From IMG/VR virus record IMGVR_UViG_3300045988_095676, positions 26,969 to 90,968 of that record: DNA of 64,000 nucleotides; one strand, written 5' to 3'. This DNA is from a virus. This document shows, piece after piece, positions 6,937-41,008 of the stretch. The position numbers and the translations under genes are program-made. Numbering within the stretch: the first letter of the stretch is position 1; the number at the start of each line of letters is the position of its first letter. The notes beneath the pieces were generated by a model. That model was not told the DNA's origin and searched no databases. It was given only the letters and a program-made list of their open reading frames with translations.

Positions 6937-7858
6937 ATCGGATTTAGATGGCGTTGTATCGGCAGCCATCGCAACCATGTACGAAAACAGTAAAAACAAG
7001 GATGTTGTTTATATCCCGTATTCGTATGAAGATGATGTTAAGAAAGTTGTTGACCAAGTACGTGACTTAGATGTTGTTTATGTTCTTGACGTGTCTTTTG
7101 GAGCCGATTCTAAAACTGTTTTCAAAAAGTGGCTTGATGAAGGGAAGAGCCTGATGTGGATAGATCACCACAAGGGAATTATTGAGGACAGTAAGACATG
7201 GGGGTTCGTAGTTCCAGGGTTGAGGAGGGTCGGTGTCGGTGCGTGCGCTCTGGCTTCGGACCTGCTTATGGGGAAGGTGCCGGCGATCGTCCGATGCCTG
7301 TCAGACTACGATGTGTGGAATAAAGAATCTGGCTTAGGCTGGGATACGGTAGTAGCTGTCCAGTATGCCTTGAGATCAAAAATAAGACTCAATGTATTGA
7401 TTGCATTGTCGTATTTATATGATCACTTTAAAGAAAACATGAAAGACAATGAAATTGATCTTATTTTTTATGATCTTGCTAAAGAAGGACGTGCTATAAT
7501 TAATTACATGGCTTGTAAAAACGAAGATGAGGTAAGTAGGTACTCGTTCGAAGCTTACGTCGACGAGGTTAAGGTTATGGCTATGAATACCGCTGAATTT
7601 AGCTCTAAGGTATTTGATTCTCTTACACCGGACTGGTTAGACGGTAGAAAAATTAAAGCCCTGATGCCATTTTGTATCATGCCATGTGGAAAAGTTAGGT
7701 TCTCTCTTTACGAATGCGTAGAAGACAGCGTAGATTGCTGTGAGGTAAGTAAGAGATTCGGTGGTGGAGGACATGCTGGTGCTGCTGGATTCGTTATAGA
7801 CGTATCAAGTGACCAGTTTAAGGACTTCCTTGAAAGTAAAAAACTTTTATCGAAATGA
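6902..7858 (+). CDS. DHH/DHHA1-family phosphoesterase (NrnA/RecJ-like)
   Basis: Motifs HKSDLDGV, DVSF, WIDHHKG (DHH) and GGGGHAGAAGF (DHHA1 GGGH). Confidence 0.8.
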   Translation: MKVKKTAIVYHKSDLDGVVSAAIATMYENSKNKDVVYIPYSYEDDVKKVVDQVRDLDVVYVLDVSFGADSKTVFKKWLDEGKSLMWIDHHKGIIEDSKTWGFVVPGLRRVGVGACALASDLLMGKVPAIVRCLSDYDVWNKESGLGWDTVVAVQYALRSKIRLNVLIALSYLYDHFKENMKDNEIDLIFYDLAKEGRAIINYMACKNEDEVSRYSFEAYVDEVKVMAMNTAEFSSKVFDSLTPDWLDGRKIKALMPFCIMPCGKVRFSLYECVEDSVDCCEVSKRFGGGGHAGAAGFVIDVSSDQFKDFLESKKLLSK

Positions 7859-8226
7859 AGCGTGAATTATATCAGTTCTATCCGGAAGTCTATCCTTTTA
7901 ATCTGTGGATATACGTAGGAAAAGATGTATCTGGCATGGTAGAATGTTTCAATAACGATTTTAGTTACGTAGATAATAGCAAGGCTGTAACTGTATCCGT
8001 TCCATACGGAGGGTGTAAATTAAATCCTAATACGGGATTTTTGATATGGTTTCTTAATAAGAAAATAATTGATTTTGAAACAGTTTGCCATGAAGCATCC
8101 CATGTTTCTACTGAAGCTTTTAATTTCTTAGGAGAAGAAGTAAAAAACTTCAGAACCATTCTCGTATCTCAATGGATGGATAGGGAGAAAGTGCGAGGAA
8201 GTAAAGATCGGAATAGCCGAAGATAA
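7855..8226 (+). CDS. small protein with HExxH motif (possible minimal zinc metallopeptidase)
   Basis: CHEASHVSTEA contains HEASH. ATGA overlap with the DHH gene. The functional call is weak. Confidence 0.4.
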   Translation: MKRELYQFYPEVYPFNLWIYVGKDVSGMVECFNNDFSYVDNSKAVTVSVPYGGCKLNPNTGFLIWFLNKKIIDFETVCHEASHVSTEAFNFLGEEVKNFRTILVSQWMDREKVRGSKDRNSRR

Positions 8227-8267
8227 ACTAATATGGGAAAGTAAATAATTACCGTCGTAAAATAAGT

Positions 8268-8300
8268 ATGGGGAACTTTGGATAGGTTCCCCATATTTTT
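8268..8300 (+). terminator. intrinsic terminator
   Basis: 9-bp stem atggggaac/gttccccat, loop tttggatag, then ATTTTT. Confidence 0.7.
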
Positions 8301-8380
8301 ATGTGATGAGGGAGAGGAATGGTGAAATGTTTATGTGATGGGAGAGATATGAGAAAGAGGTTTATGTGATGGGAGAGAGG
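8299..8380 (+). repeat. three direct repeats TTATGTGATGrGrGAGAG (iteron-like)
   Basis: Copies at 8299-8317, 8331-8347 and 8362-8380, with period 31-32 bp. Confidence 0.8.
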
Positions 8381-8408
8381 GGGTACCTATCACGAACCTC
8401 CCGCCCCC

Positions 8409-8463
8409 GAAACGCGTTTTCTCCCCCGCACCCCCCTTCGCTGGAAAACCGGAAACGCGTTTT
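8409..8463. repeat. two copies of palindromic GAAACGCGTTTT embedded in C-runs
   Basis: Copies at 8409-8420 and 8452-8463. C-runs at 8400-02, 8404-08, 8423-27 and 8431-36. Confidence 0.8.
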
Positions 8464-8474
8464 ACCTCAAACCC

Positions 8475-8520
8475 ACAAACTCTCTGATTATCAATCACTT
8501 ATTTAAATTATTGATAATCA
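8475..8520. repeat. 11-bp perfect inverted repeat TGATTATCAAT / ATTGATAATCA
   Basis: Arms at 8475-8485 and 8510-8520. Related TGATWATCA copies near 8540 and 8623. Confidence 0.8.
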
Positions 8521-8705
8521 ATGTGTTATTATAACATATTGATTATAAGCCACTTAAATAAGCATATATCCTACATATTAATGTACGCGTATAACACTGC
8601 TCTCGTTCGTTTTATAACTTTCTGATAATCAGATAATATAATCGAAATTAATACAAATTAACAAAAAAAAGATATCATATATATTTGTAGTATTGATAAA
8701 TGTCG

Positions 8706-8713
8706 TATATTTG
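8706..8713 (+). promoter_or_regulatory. -7 promoter box TATATTTG (second copy at 8680-8687)
   Basis: Matches TAnnTTTG. It is followed by the hairpin cgtgatc-gagaga-gatcacg. Confidence 0.4.
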
Positions 8714-8858
8714 CGTCGTGATCGAGAGAGATCACGAGTTAACATAGTGAACCTATATAGTGTACCCGTTGGGCTAACTATATATGTATCTGTAATTGCC
8801 TGCGTTGTGGGTCATTAATTTGAATATCATTTGTTTAACAATTAAAATATATTGGGAT

Positions 8859-9398
8859 ATGATTACGAAAAAAAATGTAAACAAACTACAGAATGCCGTT
8901 ATCAAAGAAAATGCTGCAAATTTGGTAGGTGCTGTTAAACTGTACAACGCTCTATTTGCTAATGGAGCTGATCTAAAGGCTATTTGCAAGGCTTTGGAAA
9001 TACCGGCAGAATACGCCGTAAAGGTTGCAGCCCTCGCCAAGGATAAAAAACGCCTGGTAGCCGTGTGTAGCCAAATGTTACCGAAAGTTGATAATACCTT
9101 TGTTAAATTTGCTTTATACTCTAAAGTATATAAGGATACCAATGCGGACAAAGAAAAAGGAATTGAAGCTAAAACGGCTGATTGGTGCGCTGAGAATGTG
9201 GTTTACGGTAGCGAATATAAAGCATTTGGTTTTACTACTGCCGAATCATTGGAGAATAAAAAAAGTACTAAATGGTTGGTAAAAGAAACCGACGAGTACA
9301 AATCTACTTATGTGGCTGTTAAGATCAAATCTTATTCTATTCGCACTGTGGCAAAGTGTGTAAGTGAATACCTCGCACATGAAAGCAACCAGCAGTAA
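8859..9398 (+). CDS. hypothetical protein
   Basis: ATG 8859 inside ORF 8796..9398, preceded by the 19-nt element TGTTTAACAATTAAAATAT. Isolated between two long non-coding regions. Confidence 0.6.
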   Translation: MITKKNVNKLQNAVIKENAANLVGAVKLYNALFANGADLKAICKALEIPAEYAVKVAALAKDKKRLVAVCSQMLPKVDNTFVKFALYSKVYKDTNADKEKGIEAKTADWCAENVVYGSEYKAFGFTTAESLENKKSTKWLVKETDEYKSTYVAVKIKSYSIRTVAKCVSEYLAHESNQQ

Positions 9399-9960
9399 CA
9401 AGGCACGGAGAGCGCCGTTAAGCTCTCCAAAGGTTTGACGCGTACCGTTAAACGCGTCTGTACGCCGTTGTCAGTGGGTGCACGTCCCGCGTATGCTTTA
9501 GACTGAAGCTGACAAAACAGAGAGTTATTTTACATATTGGAGATAGATATACCGGTATCGAGGCCGTTGGCAATTAAAAATACGGTATTGCTGCATGAAC
9601 TGCACTAAATAAGTGTGGTTTATGTTAGGTATGTTAGTACAGTTTGGAAAACATACCGTTGTACGCGGTTTATCTCCAGACCGAAACGTGTCTTACTTGC
9701 CTACACGTAAAATAGGACAAGGCTGTAGATTAAATTACAGGGTATAAACATGTAGCCTACCATGTAGGAGCGTGATATATCAAAGCGCAAGGACACAATC
9801 GCCTTTATTTGTGGCTAAGTTGTGTAGCAGACGGAAAATATAATAACAACATAGTACGAGCCTGTACGCAAGAACTACGTACTAATTACGGGCTGTTGGT
9901 TGTAGCATAAAATCTCTATAGGATAGGAATGCGTGTCCGGTTCGATTCCGGAGCAACCTC
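9399..9960 (+). ncRNA. candidate large structured non-coding RNA ending in a tRNA/tmRNA-like T-arm
   Basis: No ORF. Many local hairpins, five CCGTTR motifs, an 8-bp long-range pairing (9538-45 with 9671-78) and a 3' end tccgg-ttcgatt-ccgga-gcaacc. Confidence 0.35.
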
Positions 9961-10391: not shown

Positions 10392-10426
10392 AGGGTTGTT
10401 CCGAATATCGGAGCAGCCCTATTTTT
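10392..10426 (+). terminator. intrinsic terminator
   Basis: 12-bp stem agggttgttccg/cggagcagccct (two G-T pairs), 5-nt loop, then ATTTTT. Confidence 0.75.
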
Positions 10427-10488
10427 GTATCCTACTCTTTCTATTTACGGGTAGGATATTCTGAGAGTGAACGGCGGATGTAAGCTAT

Positions 10489-10581
10489 ATTGGTCTAAAA
10501 CGAAACTAAAATATGAGAGTTTGGATACAATGCCGGTATTTTGTCTATATCATGTCGTTGAAATTGGTCTAAAACGAAACT
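10489..10581 (+). repeat. 19-bp perfect direct repeat ATTGGTCTAAAACGAAACT, two copies
   Basis: Copies at 10489-10507 and 10563-10581 (74-bp period). Confidence 0.85.
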
Positions 10582-10583
10582 TT

Positions 10584-10629
10584 AGGCGGTTTTCTGACCC
10601 AAAATAGGGCGTCGGATGCCGCCTTTTTC
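10584..10629 (+). terminator. terminator-like hairpin with internal sub-hairpin
   Basis: aggcgg...ccgcct stem enclosing ccc-aaaata-ggg, followed by TTTTC. Confidence 0.5.
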
Positions 10630-10754
10630 GTCTCTATGGATTGAAAATTAGGCTTATTGTACTTTTCTTAAAAATAAGGTATGCTTGATTATCAATTAGT
10701 TAGGTTTTATGATACCCGTATTTTCGGACACACTTATTGTAAATTTTTTATTTT

Positions 10755-10922
10755 ATGTGGTGGTTTTTATTAGTAGCTGACCTGTATTTTTTATCGGTTG
10801 GAGTAAGGTCTATGTTGGAGTACGGACCGGATCAGTATAATATTGTAATGGTCTTTTGCTTTTCTTTATTGGCTTTGATTATAGGCTTAAATATCTATCT
10901 TGATAGGAGGAGCAGGCGGTAG
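10755..10922 (+). CDS. small membrane protein (55 aa, two hydrophobic helices)
   Basis: Hand-translated MWWFLLVADLYFL...LALIIGLNIYLDRRSRR, TAG stop. Below the ORF-track cutoff. Confidence 0.4.
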   Translation: MWWFLLVADLYFLSVGVRSMLEYGPDQYNIVMVFCFSLLALIIGLNIYLDRRSRR

Positions 10923-11110
10923 GGCGTGGGCTGAAGGCTCTCTATTCTCTCTATGGAATGATATTATCTCTAAATACCCCATACTTCATGCCAGAGTATA
11001 AGCTTGTAGCGCTCTCCGTATGCCGGTAGTGAGGCCGAGAGCGCAGGTTCTATGCGGAAAGCCGGAGGATTAGCCGGGGTTGGAGAGGGGGAGAGGGAGG
11101 GCACTCCCTA

Positions 11111-11250
11111 CCAACAAAATTCAATAGATAAGCGTTTTAAAACAGTGTTCTGTAGATCATTTCCACAAAATTCAATATGATAAGGGTTTAAAACAGCATT
11201 ATATAGGTTCCTTCCAACAGATTAAGGGTTGAGGACTGCATTATGTGAGT
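11111..11250 (+). repeat. three imperfect tandem repeats (core ATWAAGSGTTTAAAACAG..TAG), period about 52 then 42 bp
   Basis: Cores start at 11128, 11180 and 11222. The first two units also share ACAAAATTCAATA. Confidence 0.7.
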
Positions 11251-11285
11251 ATTTTTTTTTAAGCGGGATGTTTAACAATTAAAAT

Positions 11286-11555
11286 ATGGATGGTATGAAC
11301 GTATATGACTTTGCGCCTGACTTAGATTTGAGTAAGGAGGTAGAAGGTTCTATTTTCGGGGTAAAAGGAATAGAAGGCAGTGATGGAATAGTATATGCTA
11401 AGGTAGTTAGCTGTGTAGACGTTAAGGATTACAGTTGTGATAGGTGTATTTTTTATGATTGTTATAAGGATAAATGTTTATTATCGCGTAGTGATAGTTG
11501 TATAGATGGAGATTGGATTTGTAGGTACGAACAGGCTGCCATAGAGGGGGAGTAG
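11286..11555 (+). CDS. Cys-rich hypothetical protein
   Basis: ORF track, preceded by the same 19-nt element as the 8859 gene. Confidence 0.65.
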   Translation: MDGMNVYDFAPDLDLSKEVEGSIFGVKGIEGSDGIVYAKVVSCVDVKDYSCDRCIFYDCYKDKCLLSRSDSCIDGDWICRYEQAAIEGE

Positions 11556-26903: not shown

Positions 26904-27371
26904 ATGGGATTAACCTATAAAACAAAATTGCTTATGAAAACATTAGAACAACTTAAAGAATTAACATCAAAATGTTTAGACGGTAGAGATTTTAACAGAC
27001 TGGCTAAATTTGTTCCATATAGCATGATAAAGGATTTCGGTATGGAGCCGAATGAAGAATATGACAACGAGGAAAAGTGGAACAGTACTGTAGTTGAATT
27101 TACCAGAGAAAATGTCCTGAAACAGCTTGAAGAAGACGTAAGATTCGGTTTTGAAAAGGCATTAAATCAGAGAGGAATATCAGCCAGTTTGATGTTTGAA
27201 TGTGTGATGATGTGGAACTACATTCTGGAAGAAGGTCTTGAAGGCTGGGGTGAGGATGATTATGCATTTTATGGACTCCCTCTATTTAAAGCTACGGCTG
27301 TAAAATATGGATGGGACAATCCGATAGGGGAAGACAGCGGGAGAGAAAGAAAATATGATTCACAATATTAA
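26904..27371 (+). CDS. hypothetical protein
   Basis: ORF track. An alternative ATG at 26934 is possible. Confidence 0.6.
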   Translation: MGLTYKTKLLMKTLEQLKELTSKCLDGRDFNRLAKFVPYSMIKDFGMEPNEEYDNEEKWNSTVVEFTRENVLKQLEEDVRFGFEKALNQRGISASLMFECVMMWNYILEEGLEGWGEDDYAFYGLPLFKATAVKYGWDNPIGEDSGRERKYDSQY

Positions 27372-39742: not shown

Positions 39743-41008
39743 AATAAAATTGAAATTTCAAATAGTAAAATTGATTGATGAGATTGGTTGAAAAACATAT
39801 TATTAAAGATAACAGATTTGAAGATATTTGCCTCAAATCAGGATTGCTATATAATTATGTCTTGTATAATGCGCGTAAAGGTATCTTCAATAAAGAATAT
39901 CTGAATGAATATGAATTTTCAACCAAACTTTGTAGAGAAAATCAATTTGATTTCAGGAATTTGCCCACTTCTGTTTCTCAACAAGTAGTTGGCCAAGTTT
40001 TTAAAAATATAAAATCATGGATTAGACTCAAGAAGGATTTTGAAAACAATCCTTCCAAATACGATAATTGTTGTCCTCATCTACCTTCGTACAAGAAAGG
40101 CAAGAAACAGAACATGGTTGTGTTCACAACTTCTGCTTGTAGGCTAAAGAAGGATGGTTGTATTCATTTTGTTAAAAATATAATTCAACCAATTAAAACT
40201 GAAATAGGAGATAGTAAATTATGTCAGGTTAGAATCATTCCACAATCTACATGCTATGTGGTTGAAGTAATTTATGAAAAGAAAGAACATAATCTAAGTC
40301 TTGATAAGGATAATGTTCTTTCGATTGATTTAGGATTGAATAATTTATGTTCATGTATCAGCAATGCCGGATTGGTTCCTTTCATTGTAAACGGGCGGAT
40401 TATGAAATCTTTTAATCAGTGGTACAATAAGAGGAAAGCTAAGTTAATGTCTTATGTTGGAGGTAAGGGTACTTCTGAAAGACTTAGACAGCTAAATAAT
40501 TATAGGAATTTTTGGATAGAAGACTACATCCACAAGGTTAGTCGATATATTGTCAATTATTGTATTACTAACAACATTGGTAGTATCGTAATAGGTTTAA
40601 ATAAAGGATGGAAACAAAAGATTAATCTTGGAAAGAAGATTAATCAAAAGTTTGTTGAAATACCTTTTTCAAGACTTATAGACAAAATATCCTATAAATG
40701 TAAGTTGGTAGGTATCAGCTTTCAAATTAATGAAGAATCCTATACATCAAAGGTTGATCATTTAGCTTTTGAGAAATTAGGGAAGCATGATGTTTACTTA
40801 GGCAAAAGAAAGAAACGTGGATTATTCCAAAGCTCAGTTGGAAAGTTGTTAAATGCGGATATCAATGGAGCTATTGGGATAGGTAGAAAAGTATTCGGTG
40901 ATTCATTTGTAAACATGATAATCGATAGTGGGTTTGCGTTTAACCCGATTAGAGTAAACATTTTGTAATATAGATGTGAATTTAATGAATAAAATTTAAA
41001 ATTTTAAT
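39743..41008 (+). mobile_element. solo tnpB insertion (IS200/IS605-family remnant without tnpA)
   Basis: The tnpB gene is bracketed by imperfect AT-rich direct repeats AATAAAATTgAAAtTT (39743-39763) and AATAAAATTtAAAaTT (40988-41008). It is lower in GC than its neighbours, and there is a palindrome ttgaaatttcaa at the left edge. Confidence 0.5.
39778..40968 (+). CDS. tnpB: TnpB-like RNA-guided-nuclease family protein (OrfB), RuvC triad present, zinc finger absent
   Basis: RuvC-I SIDLGLNN, RuvC-II EESYTSK, RuvC-III NADINGAIGI. There are no CxxC pairs between II and III. Confidence 0.8.
   Translation: MRLVEKHIIKDNRFEDICLKSGLLYNYVLYNARKGIFNKEYLNEYEFSTKLCRENQFDFRNLPTSVSQQVVGQVFKNIKSWIRLKKDFENNPSKYDNCCPHLPSYKKGKKQNMVVFTTSACRLKKDGCIHFVKNIIQPIKTEIGDSKLCQVRIIPQSTCYVVEVIYEKKEHNLSLDKDNVLSIDLGLNNLCSCISNAGLVPFIVNGRIMKSFNQWYNKRKAKLMSYVGGKGTSERLRQLNNYRNFWIEDYIHKVSRYIVNYCITNNIGSIVIGLNKGWKQKINLGKKINQKFVEIPFSRLIDKISYKCKLVGISFQINEESYTSKVDHLAFEKLGKHDVYLGKRKKRGLFQSSVGKLLNADINGAIGIGRKVFGDSFVNMIIDSGFAFNPIRVNIL

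Follow-up and report, generated by a model that had tools for sequence, protein, structure and literature searches.

A single-copy, two-armed non-coding control region of epsilon crAss-like phages, with a possible replication origin

Positions 8299 to 8700 of a 64,000-nt window from IMG/VR virus record IMGVR_UViG_3300045988_095676 (positions 26,969 to 90,968 of that record) raise the question of what some 400 bp of non-coding, repeat-dense DNA does for a phage. The original prediction, made from the letters alone, was that this hub of direct repeats, palindromes, C-runs and inverted repeats has the architecture of a replication origin or a partition or regulatory site. The window is from an epsilon crAss-like phage, with 88-94% identity and collinearity to crAssE-Sib (OR575929, 151,256 bp, human gut origin). 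The hub, designated E1, forms the left arm of a non-coding control region that has two arms, is single copy and is restricted to epsilon crAss-like phages and their relatives. As to its function, we tentatively favor a combined origin and early promoter over the alternatives.

All four predicted repeat classes are present, and they cluster far above chance as judged by shuffles and expected counts. The repeats and the C-run motif are single copy in the 151-kb relative. Copies of the hub core were sought in bacterial genomes, as prophage or host sequence, giving 62 matches, mostly in GC-rich genomes, all of which were judged to be chance (12 were inspected). The description as a non-coding, repeat-built, cis-acting region is borne out, in that the stretch sits inside a 632-bp intergenic gap, from the end of a 123-aa open reading frame (ORF) at 8226 to the start of a 179-aa ORF at 8859, and the frame of the ORF overlapping it is not kept. 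The ORF in question covers the C-runs with 46-55 aa (8366-8506 on the plus strand; OR575929 1938-2105, hypothetical protein WOZ57220.1). Across the C-runs the crAssE-Sib ORF has -1 and +1 indels 33 nt apart, and by hand translation the distant locus L167 has the conserved box read in another frame. WOZ57220.1 and its like are very probably not genes.

Over 97 distinct close relatives, the segment 8383-8462, which holds a junction, the C-runs and two boxes, is 97-99.6% invariant. That is more conserved than the flanking genes, the coding sequence of the 179-aa gene being mostly 0.84-0.94 conserved (0.79-0.96 per 20-nt block) with variation at third codon positions; 8563-8682 is mostly very well conserved too. 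For distant relatives, an IMG/VR single-protein scan gave no result, and ten diverged lineages were recovered via the 179-aa protein family, whose proteins share 24-53% identity mutually. All 10 have a long non-coding stretch (~470-1,300 nt) upstream of the gene with a common order of parts, namely G-rich tandem units, a G-run, ACCTAYC, CCTCC and C-runs around RAAACG-N2-3-TTTT, 1-3 WATCAANNNNTTR sites, an AT-rich stretch, TAnnTTTG usually followed by CGTGA, and then the gene. Absence of the repeats from relatives had been named beforehand as one of the results that would speak against an origin, and they are kept there.

The prediction covered the hub alone and missed that it is only half of a mirrored pair. 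The partner, E2 (11076-11248), lies 2.7 kb downstream, and with E1 it brackets a conserved island of three genes encoding 179, 56 and 68 aa. What leads to its tandem array, array 2, is a second class of contig ends together with many 2.75-kb Logan contigs that carry the 179-aa gene. The E1 C-runs and the E2 G-block are the only two G-quadruplex (G4)-type motifs of the window, they are on opposite strands, and outward from the island both arms run in the same order of G-runs, a short G/C junction and a tandem array. Seven distant loci, which represent 6 lineages, have an E2 equivalent 1.6-2.1 kb 3' of the 179-aa gene homologue. Among relatives the E2 G-block is 168 to 479 nt away from the gene that follows, and in the window array 2 sits just 5' of the first gene (ATG 11286) in a long run of small genes. 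Within the island, 10400-11100, between the 68-aa gene and E2, is mostly non-coding (at most a 55-aa ORF) and is 0.91-0.99 conserved, above the neighboring genes. Array 2 was also considered as a reverse complement of array 1, which was rejected on Smith-Waterman scores no better than cross-genome controls.

The four C-runs of E1 read on the minus strand as G6-N3-G5-N14-G5-N1-G3 (8400-8436), a strict G4-type motif observed once against 0.01 expected, and the sole one in the 64 kb and in the 151-kb relative. It has four G-tracts of at least three, short loops and conserved tracts, at the 97-99.6% level among the close relatives and with all four runs retained in 8/10 distant lineages, and it thus qualifies, at the level of sequence, as the putative G-quadruplex that had been proposed for this strand. 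The palindrome pair fares differently. Exact GAAACGCGTTTT copies are at 8409 and 8452 as stated, but the palindromic character is not conserved in distant relatives, whose boxes keep CCCC-RAAACG-N2-3-TTTT-CCCC and not the palindrome, nor the ACGCGT core as such. The second box is found in the window, L161, L167 and L169 lineages and is absent from L165 and L170-172. Both L169 boxes share one G-to-A change, which argues for sequence recognition or gene conversion and not for pairing between the boxes. In the junction, most lineages of a 9-lineage alignment have ACCTAYC or a slight variant of it.

To the left of the junction, the direct repeat TTATGTGATGrGrGAGA starts at 8299, 8331 and 8362, with the predicted spacing of 32 and 31 nt. 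With <=3 mismatches allowed it has 4 matches in 64 kb, a number reached by 0/100 shuffles. For comparison, ~150 loci from close relatives were fetched, yielding 65 distinct complete arrays with 2-15 units of 27-35 nt, 48-432 nt in all, and a C content of 0.9% on the plus strand (crAssE-Sib has four units). The array always ends in TTATGTGATGGGAGAGAGGGG, joined to the invariant block. Distant lineages have G-rich, lineage-specific units with the common core TTTRYGTGA. The prediction called the repeats iterons; the regular spacing of direct repeats is real, but their number varies over the whole 2-15 range among near-identical phages, and what was called iterons is a hypervariable minisatellite, whose short units resemble protein sites.

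The minisatellites also account for how these genomes assemble. Among loci cut by a contig end, 37/84 end within array 1, and many IMG/VR contigs end within array 2. Such ends were entertained as physical termini and rejected, because they fall in tandem arrays and both ends of one 149.8-kb contig (117453) fall in array 1; contig breaks there are an assembly effect of the repeat and not a sign of a physical end. It is because of the two arrays that assemblies of these phages share two break points.

To the right of the C-runs, the perfect 11-bp inverted repeat is real, TGATTATCAAT at 8485-8495 pairing with ATTGATAATCA at 8510-8520, but its left arm had been placed at 8475-85, off by 10 nt. The TGATWATCA copies are exact at 8485, 8512 and 8623, and the one at 8540 is degenerate (TGATTATAA). 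These copies are best read as predicted binding sites of integration host factor (IHF) arranged as two palindromes. Four perfect matches to the consensus WATCAANNNNTTR are found within 56 bp (8489-8544), with 12 in the 64 kb; a match to this consensus, preferably with an upstream A/T tract, is what marks a candidate IHF site. There are 1-3 IHF-type sites after the C-run block in 9/10 distant lineages, and in L165 and L170-172 they are single sites preceded by A-tracts. Beyond them, TAATGTACGCGTATA is another motif shared with distant lineages, L165 and L172 having it in the reverse orientation. The AT-rich DNA of the prediction is there as well, 8500-8700 being 27% G+C beside the GC block, with an A8 run at 8663-8670.

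Two TATATTTG boxes had been proposed as promoter elements, and they are real, at 8680 and 8706, the second being just past the 8700 end that was given for the hub. The first supplies the upstream TTTG and is mutated in crAssE-Sib, while the second is the -7 element and is invariant in close relatives. In 10/10 distant lineages the homologous gene has an upstream TAnnTTTG with G/C-rich sequence after it, in general CGTGA, which most lineages retain. By its letters, TAnnTTTG with an upstream TTTG 5' of a gene matches a Bacteroidetes primary-sigma promoter. The 8684-8713 elements are like the described type (-33 TTTG / -7 TAnnTTTG), with the -7 box in all lineages, but the spacer of the predicted promoter is 18 nt versus the usual 19-21.

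The gene served by this predicted promoter is an orphan. Its family has 38 representatives among 1.8 billion clusters, and its structure model is confident, with a predicted local distance difference test (pLDDT) score of 90, but searches by structure or fold, profile and sequence found no relative, and the protein has no P-loop motif. It was considered as a Rep-like initiator and rejected for want of any match by fold or profile. A motif TTAACAATTAAAA occurs at 8835-8847 and 11272-11284, 2-12 nt before the starts of the 179-aa gene and the gene at 11286; it likewise precedes gp005 of the marine crAss-like phage phi14:2 (L237 ~1952-1964) and the homologous genes in L161, L167 and L169, and it may be a conserved signal for translation initiation or for processing. 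The leader between promoter and gene is only 140 nt in the window, and several distant lineages have a conserved leader of 450-700 nt (L165 2550-3000, L171 2190-2640, L172 2550-3000, L167 2330-2990) that includes AAACGGATCGGATCAAC and GGTCAAACACGCG..AAACGTCTGTAT and could be a structured 5' untranslated region or a small RNA.

A promoter of the host type conserved in all lineages raises the question of whether control is purely transcriptional. E1 and E2 would then be regulatory or insulating modules of outward operons plus the island promoter, the palindromes being operators of a phage regulator, the IHF sites bending the DNA and the arrays being clusters of binding sites. Paired adjacent 28-bp palindromes are typical of operators, TGATWATCAAT recurs elsewhere in the genome, and E2 is just 5' of the first gene in its long run of small genes. 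Six lineages have leftward genes left of E1, and L170 has a leftward TATATTTG box between array 1 and the first of these. However, the palindromes are 170-220 nt upstream of the -7 box, far for a repressor; E1 in this lineage comes after a terminator and lacks a consensus promoter pointing leftward, although no part of the region is more conserved; and simple operator logic leaves the strand-asymmetric minisatellite and the G4 motif unexplained. We regard a purely transcriptional role as somewhat unlikely.

The origin-plus-promoter reading is ranked first because its parts are closest to origins built of iterons, IHF sites and AT-rich next to GC-rich DNA, because the phage must recruit host replication machinery, and because the hub is at a strand switch in other lineages. 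The iteron-type theta origins of plasmids and phage-plasmids that serve for comparison are RK2 oriV, the pSC101 origin, P1 oriR (incC-repA-incA) and F oriS. Like them, the locus has several regularly spaced tandem direct repeats (3 units here, 2-15 in relatives), one or more IHF sites, AT-rich next to GC-rich DNA, a promoter and its gene directly 3' of these parts, another cluster of repeats past that gene as in P1 incA, and one copy per replicon. Unlike them, the hub has no recognizable Rep or winged-helix initiator and no DnaA boxes were seen by eye, its units vary in number, its repeats are distal to the promoter and do not overlap it, and its two arrays are unrelated; those origins, for their part, are not known to have the strand-asymmetric (C-free) composition and G4 motif of the hub. 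The control region of polyomaviruses, with its G-rich 21-bp repeats and tandem enhancer repeats, is also alike in being compact and non-coding with palindromes, an AT tract, G4-capable G-runs and strain-variable tandem repeats, and it serves replication and divergent transcription, but this is an analogy only, since hosts and proteins differ and the flanking genes here are not divergent.

If the hub is an origin, a phage protein would occupy the tandem units, the candidates being the 179-aa protein or small basic island proteins, and DNA bending at the WATCAANNNNTTR sites would be due to proteins of the IHF/HU type. The stretch 8500-8700, clamped on one side by the GC-rich block, would open for loading of the phage helicase and primase together with host polymerase. 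Forks, transcription or both would depart in two directions from a point that the mirrored, strand-asymmetric arms mark. The epsilon group has no DNA polymerase and a minimal replication set (PMC7886860), and without a polymerase of their own these phages need an origin able to recruit host machinery. The prediction pointed to co-directional replication genes downstream. The primase and helicases are indeed 26-40 kb downstream, but the clamp and SSB genes are upstream.

A number of findings weigh against an origin. The copy-number variation of array 1 is unusual for iterons, which work cooperatively, and arrays 1 and 2 differ in sequence. No DnaA box or cluster of them was seen in the hub, by eye inspection only. 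No cognate initiator of Rep, winged-helix or O-like type is recognizable beside the repeats, and the annotated "DNA replication factor", considered for that part, is exonuclease-like with no PDB relative and was rejected. A genome terminus predicted within the island of a relative means that a packaging role competes. The skew inflection expected of an origin is not at the hub in this lineage, where the hub sits 15 kb inside a co-directional gene block: the cumulative GC-skew extremes are at the strand switches ~15 kb and 43 kb away, and for the window and the whole of crAssE-Sib they coincide with two strand switches, at 17.7 and 110.7 kb of the record. The skew step at the hub is small and is at odds with a bidirectional model for the remainder of the genome, and a two-component model of replication-related skew centered on the hub was rejected, as it does not fit the structural-gene block. 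In two distant lineages, L238 and L239 (10-kb flanks), the hub coincides with a switch to divergent strands, and cumulative GC skew has its minimum 230-320 nt away from the C-runs, but the skew switch there coincides with the switch in gene orientation and is confounded with it. Since skew follows gene orientation in these phages, neither skew result is decisive. Of the origin-like architecture, the parts list and its conservation stand, no initiator is recognizable, the skew extremes of this lineage lie elsewhere, and an origin function is possible; we infer protein binding, unwinding and initiation alike.

The competing terminus comes from crAssE-Sib, whose authors set the start of the record with PhageTerm (p = 1.5e-22; PMC11054128). 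That start maps to window ~10465, inside the island, 0.6 kb from E2 and 2.1 kb from E1. E1 and E2 might thus flank a terminase cut site or border a terminal repeat, with the IHF-type sites aiding terminase assembly. The element is single copy, an isolated IHF-type site at 10686-10702 is 220 nt from the predicted terminus, and the gene block for structure and packaging in crAss-like phages includes IHF paralogues (PMC7886860). Near the predicted terminus there are also ends of a few other public contigs, at about 9858, 10165 and 10326. The distances speak against packaging, as known terminase sites are within a few hundred bp of the cut or genome end and E1 is not, and the terminase genes are ~18-20 kb away; the tandem arrays account for the clustered contig ends, those of contig 117453 included, and the terminus type is not stated with the PhageTerm result (PMC11054128).

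Described packaging signals give a similar picture. The herpesvirus a-sequence (pac1/pac2, DR2/DR4 arrays) and lambda cosB are alike in having an A/T core flanked by C/G runs, the C-runs beside variable arrays recalling the herpesvirus pac signals in particular, strain-variable arrays, IHF-assisted terminase assembly and nearness to a predicted genome terminus. They are unlike in that the terminus here is 0.6 and 2.1 kb away and not tens of bp, the viruses are unrelated, and terminase binding at the hub is only putative. We consider a packaging element unlikely.

Variable arrays on both sides of a three-gene island resemble the layout of parC1-parAB-parC2 and sopC, from which one might propose a plasmid-type partition centromere, whose arrays around a small operon are bound by a small DNA-binding protein so that an episomal state is inherited. 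Partition centromeres such as F sopC, R1 parC and pB171 parC1/parC2 share variable tandem arrays, which sometimes flank a small operon, plus a promoter. Here, in contrast, there is no ParA, ParM or TubZ-type partition NTPase among the neighboring proteins, the 179-aa protein has no P-loop motif, the arrays are unrelated to each other, and there are extra C-run/G-run blocks and IHF sites. Epsilon crAss-like phages (PMC11054128) and crAssphage (PMC10983915) have been suggested to live as episomes, which would suit a centromere, but overall we find this explanation improbable.

The last alternative is a non-coding RNA gene, which would yield a structured RNA from the GC-rich island and a repeat-containing RNA from the arrays. 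A GC-rich, ultra-conserved block in an AT-rich genome invites the idea, as do the long intergenic regions near early genes of phi14:2, which are very highly transcribed. Rfam gives no match at E <= 1 and one chance match at E = 2.7, the single-sequence fold z-scores are -1.2 and -2.7, the latter largely from the terminator, and RNAalifold over nine lineages finds a sole consensus hairpin, at the junction 8378-8402, of -5.9 kcal/mol with a covariation term of -0.02. With no Rfam family, unremarkable single-strand folds and a weak consensus fold without covariation, a structured RNA was rejected. What is conserved is run composition, not base pairing, and one conserved motif flips orientation between lineages. 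The transcribed regions of phi14:2 were also examined as bearers of the hub element and do not have its G-run and array features. An RNA gene is therefore highly improbable.

Coordinates are collected in the table. On the plus strand, the genes 5' of the hub are tRNAs, polynucleotide kinase (PNK), a DHH phosphoesterase and the 123-aa ORF; 3' of it, the 179-aa orphan ORF (8859-9398) is followed by ~25 kb of small ORFs and then by primase, DnaB-like helicase and other replication genes.

Table. Positions of the features of E1, E2 and the island within the 64,000-nt window
Position	Strand	Feature	Remark
8264..8298	+	Terminator-like hairpin GGGGAAC...GTTCCCC, then T-run	Inverted repeat; closes the upstream PNK-DHH-123-aa gene group
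8297..8382	+	Array 1, 3 units of 31-32 nt, core TTTATGTGATGGGAGAGA	Nearly C-free on the plus strand
8378..8402	+	Junction GGGGG-TACCTATC-ACGAA-CCTCC	ACCTAYC between a G-run and a C-run
8400..8436	-	Four C-runs on the plus strand, a G4-type motif around the central GAAACGCGTTTT box	Strict motif
8452..8463	.	Second GAAACGCGTTTT box	Exact copy
8485..8544	.	Two adjacent ~28-bp palindromes, centers near 8502 and 8530	Inverted repeats
8580..8594	.	Motif TAATGTACGCGTATA, containing the palindrome TACGCGTA	Conserved among close relatives
8623..8631	.	Further TGATAATCA copy	Within the AT-rich stretch
8684..8713	+	Predicted Bacteroidetes-type promoter of the 179-aa gene	TTTG 8684-8687, 18-nt spacer, -7 box TATATTTG 8706-8713
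8717..8736	+	Inverted repeat CGTGATC-GAGAGA-GATCACG	Where transcription is expected to start; direct sequence reading
8859..9398	+	179-aa orphan gene	Always linked to the hub
10686..10702	+	Isolated IHF-consensus site TGATTATCAATTAGTTA (with TGATTATCAAT at 10686)	Consensus match; 98.8% conserved
11076..11101	+	E2 G-run block GGGGTTGGAGAGGGGGAGAGGGAGGG, mirror partner of the C-run block	The other G4-type motif; conserved
11102..11248	+	Array 2, units of 51 nt here and 21 nt in relatives	Tandem array

The surroundings of the arms show some further features. The terminator-like hairpin left of array 1 is kept in crAssE-Sib, and a large sub-lineage of close relatives is missing the adjoining 123-aa ORF (7855-8226), the array there following the DHH gene in the same place after a different terminator hairpin plus T9. 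Distant lineages have a motif GGTTCGCCGCG-N8-12-CGTATAG(R)TTCC left of array 1 (L165 1850-1900, L170 2040-2100, L171 1490-1530 and 1640-1680, L172 2030-2070), which is absent from the window. In the island, 10400-11100 holds two TTGGTCTAAAACGAAACT copies (~10489, ~10564) and terminator-like hairpins at 10395-10427 and 10606-10630, and a 580-nt non-coding stretch has a tRNA-like T-arm TCCGGTTCGATTCCGGA at 9936-9952, ~30 nt before the 56-aa gene, which neither ARAGORN nor Rfam calls. A similar arm, GGTTCGAATCC, is in the phi14:2 gp004-gp005 intergenic region (L237, ~1828-1845); the phi14:2 g004-g005 junction, in the gene numbering of its paper, which is not matched to the L237 record, is published as very highly transcribed. 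Far downstream, a gene for a TnpB / IS605 OrfB-type RNA-guided nuclease at 39775-40968 stands directly after the DnaB-like helicase gene, inside the replication block.

A literature search on crAss-like phages found no description of iterons or of a comparable element, and we know of no described origin, pac site or centromere that has mirrored modules of a G4 motif and a minisatellite. E1 and E2 might then be an undescribed bipartite phage element, an idea we hold as rather doubtful: mirror-image modules, each a G4-forming tract, a short G/C junction and a strand-asymmetric hypervariable minisatellite, would bracket a 2.7-kb island with the predicted genome terminus, a host-type promoter and orphan genes. 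If true, such an element would act via DNA structure (G4 or i-motif, single-strand exposure) and would set the polarity for forks, transcription or DNA ends in crAss-like phages that have no polymerase, while its minisatellites would evolve fast enough to serve as strain markers. The arrays in any case offer natural markers for strain typing. In human gut viromes the epsilon group accounts for 13-18% of crAss-like reads (PMC7886860), and it has no cultured gut representative. No other non-coding element found here is at once single copy, deeply conserved and built of repeats, which makes the two-armed region the obvious candidate for the cis functions of these phages, be it the start of replication, packaging or persistence.

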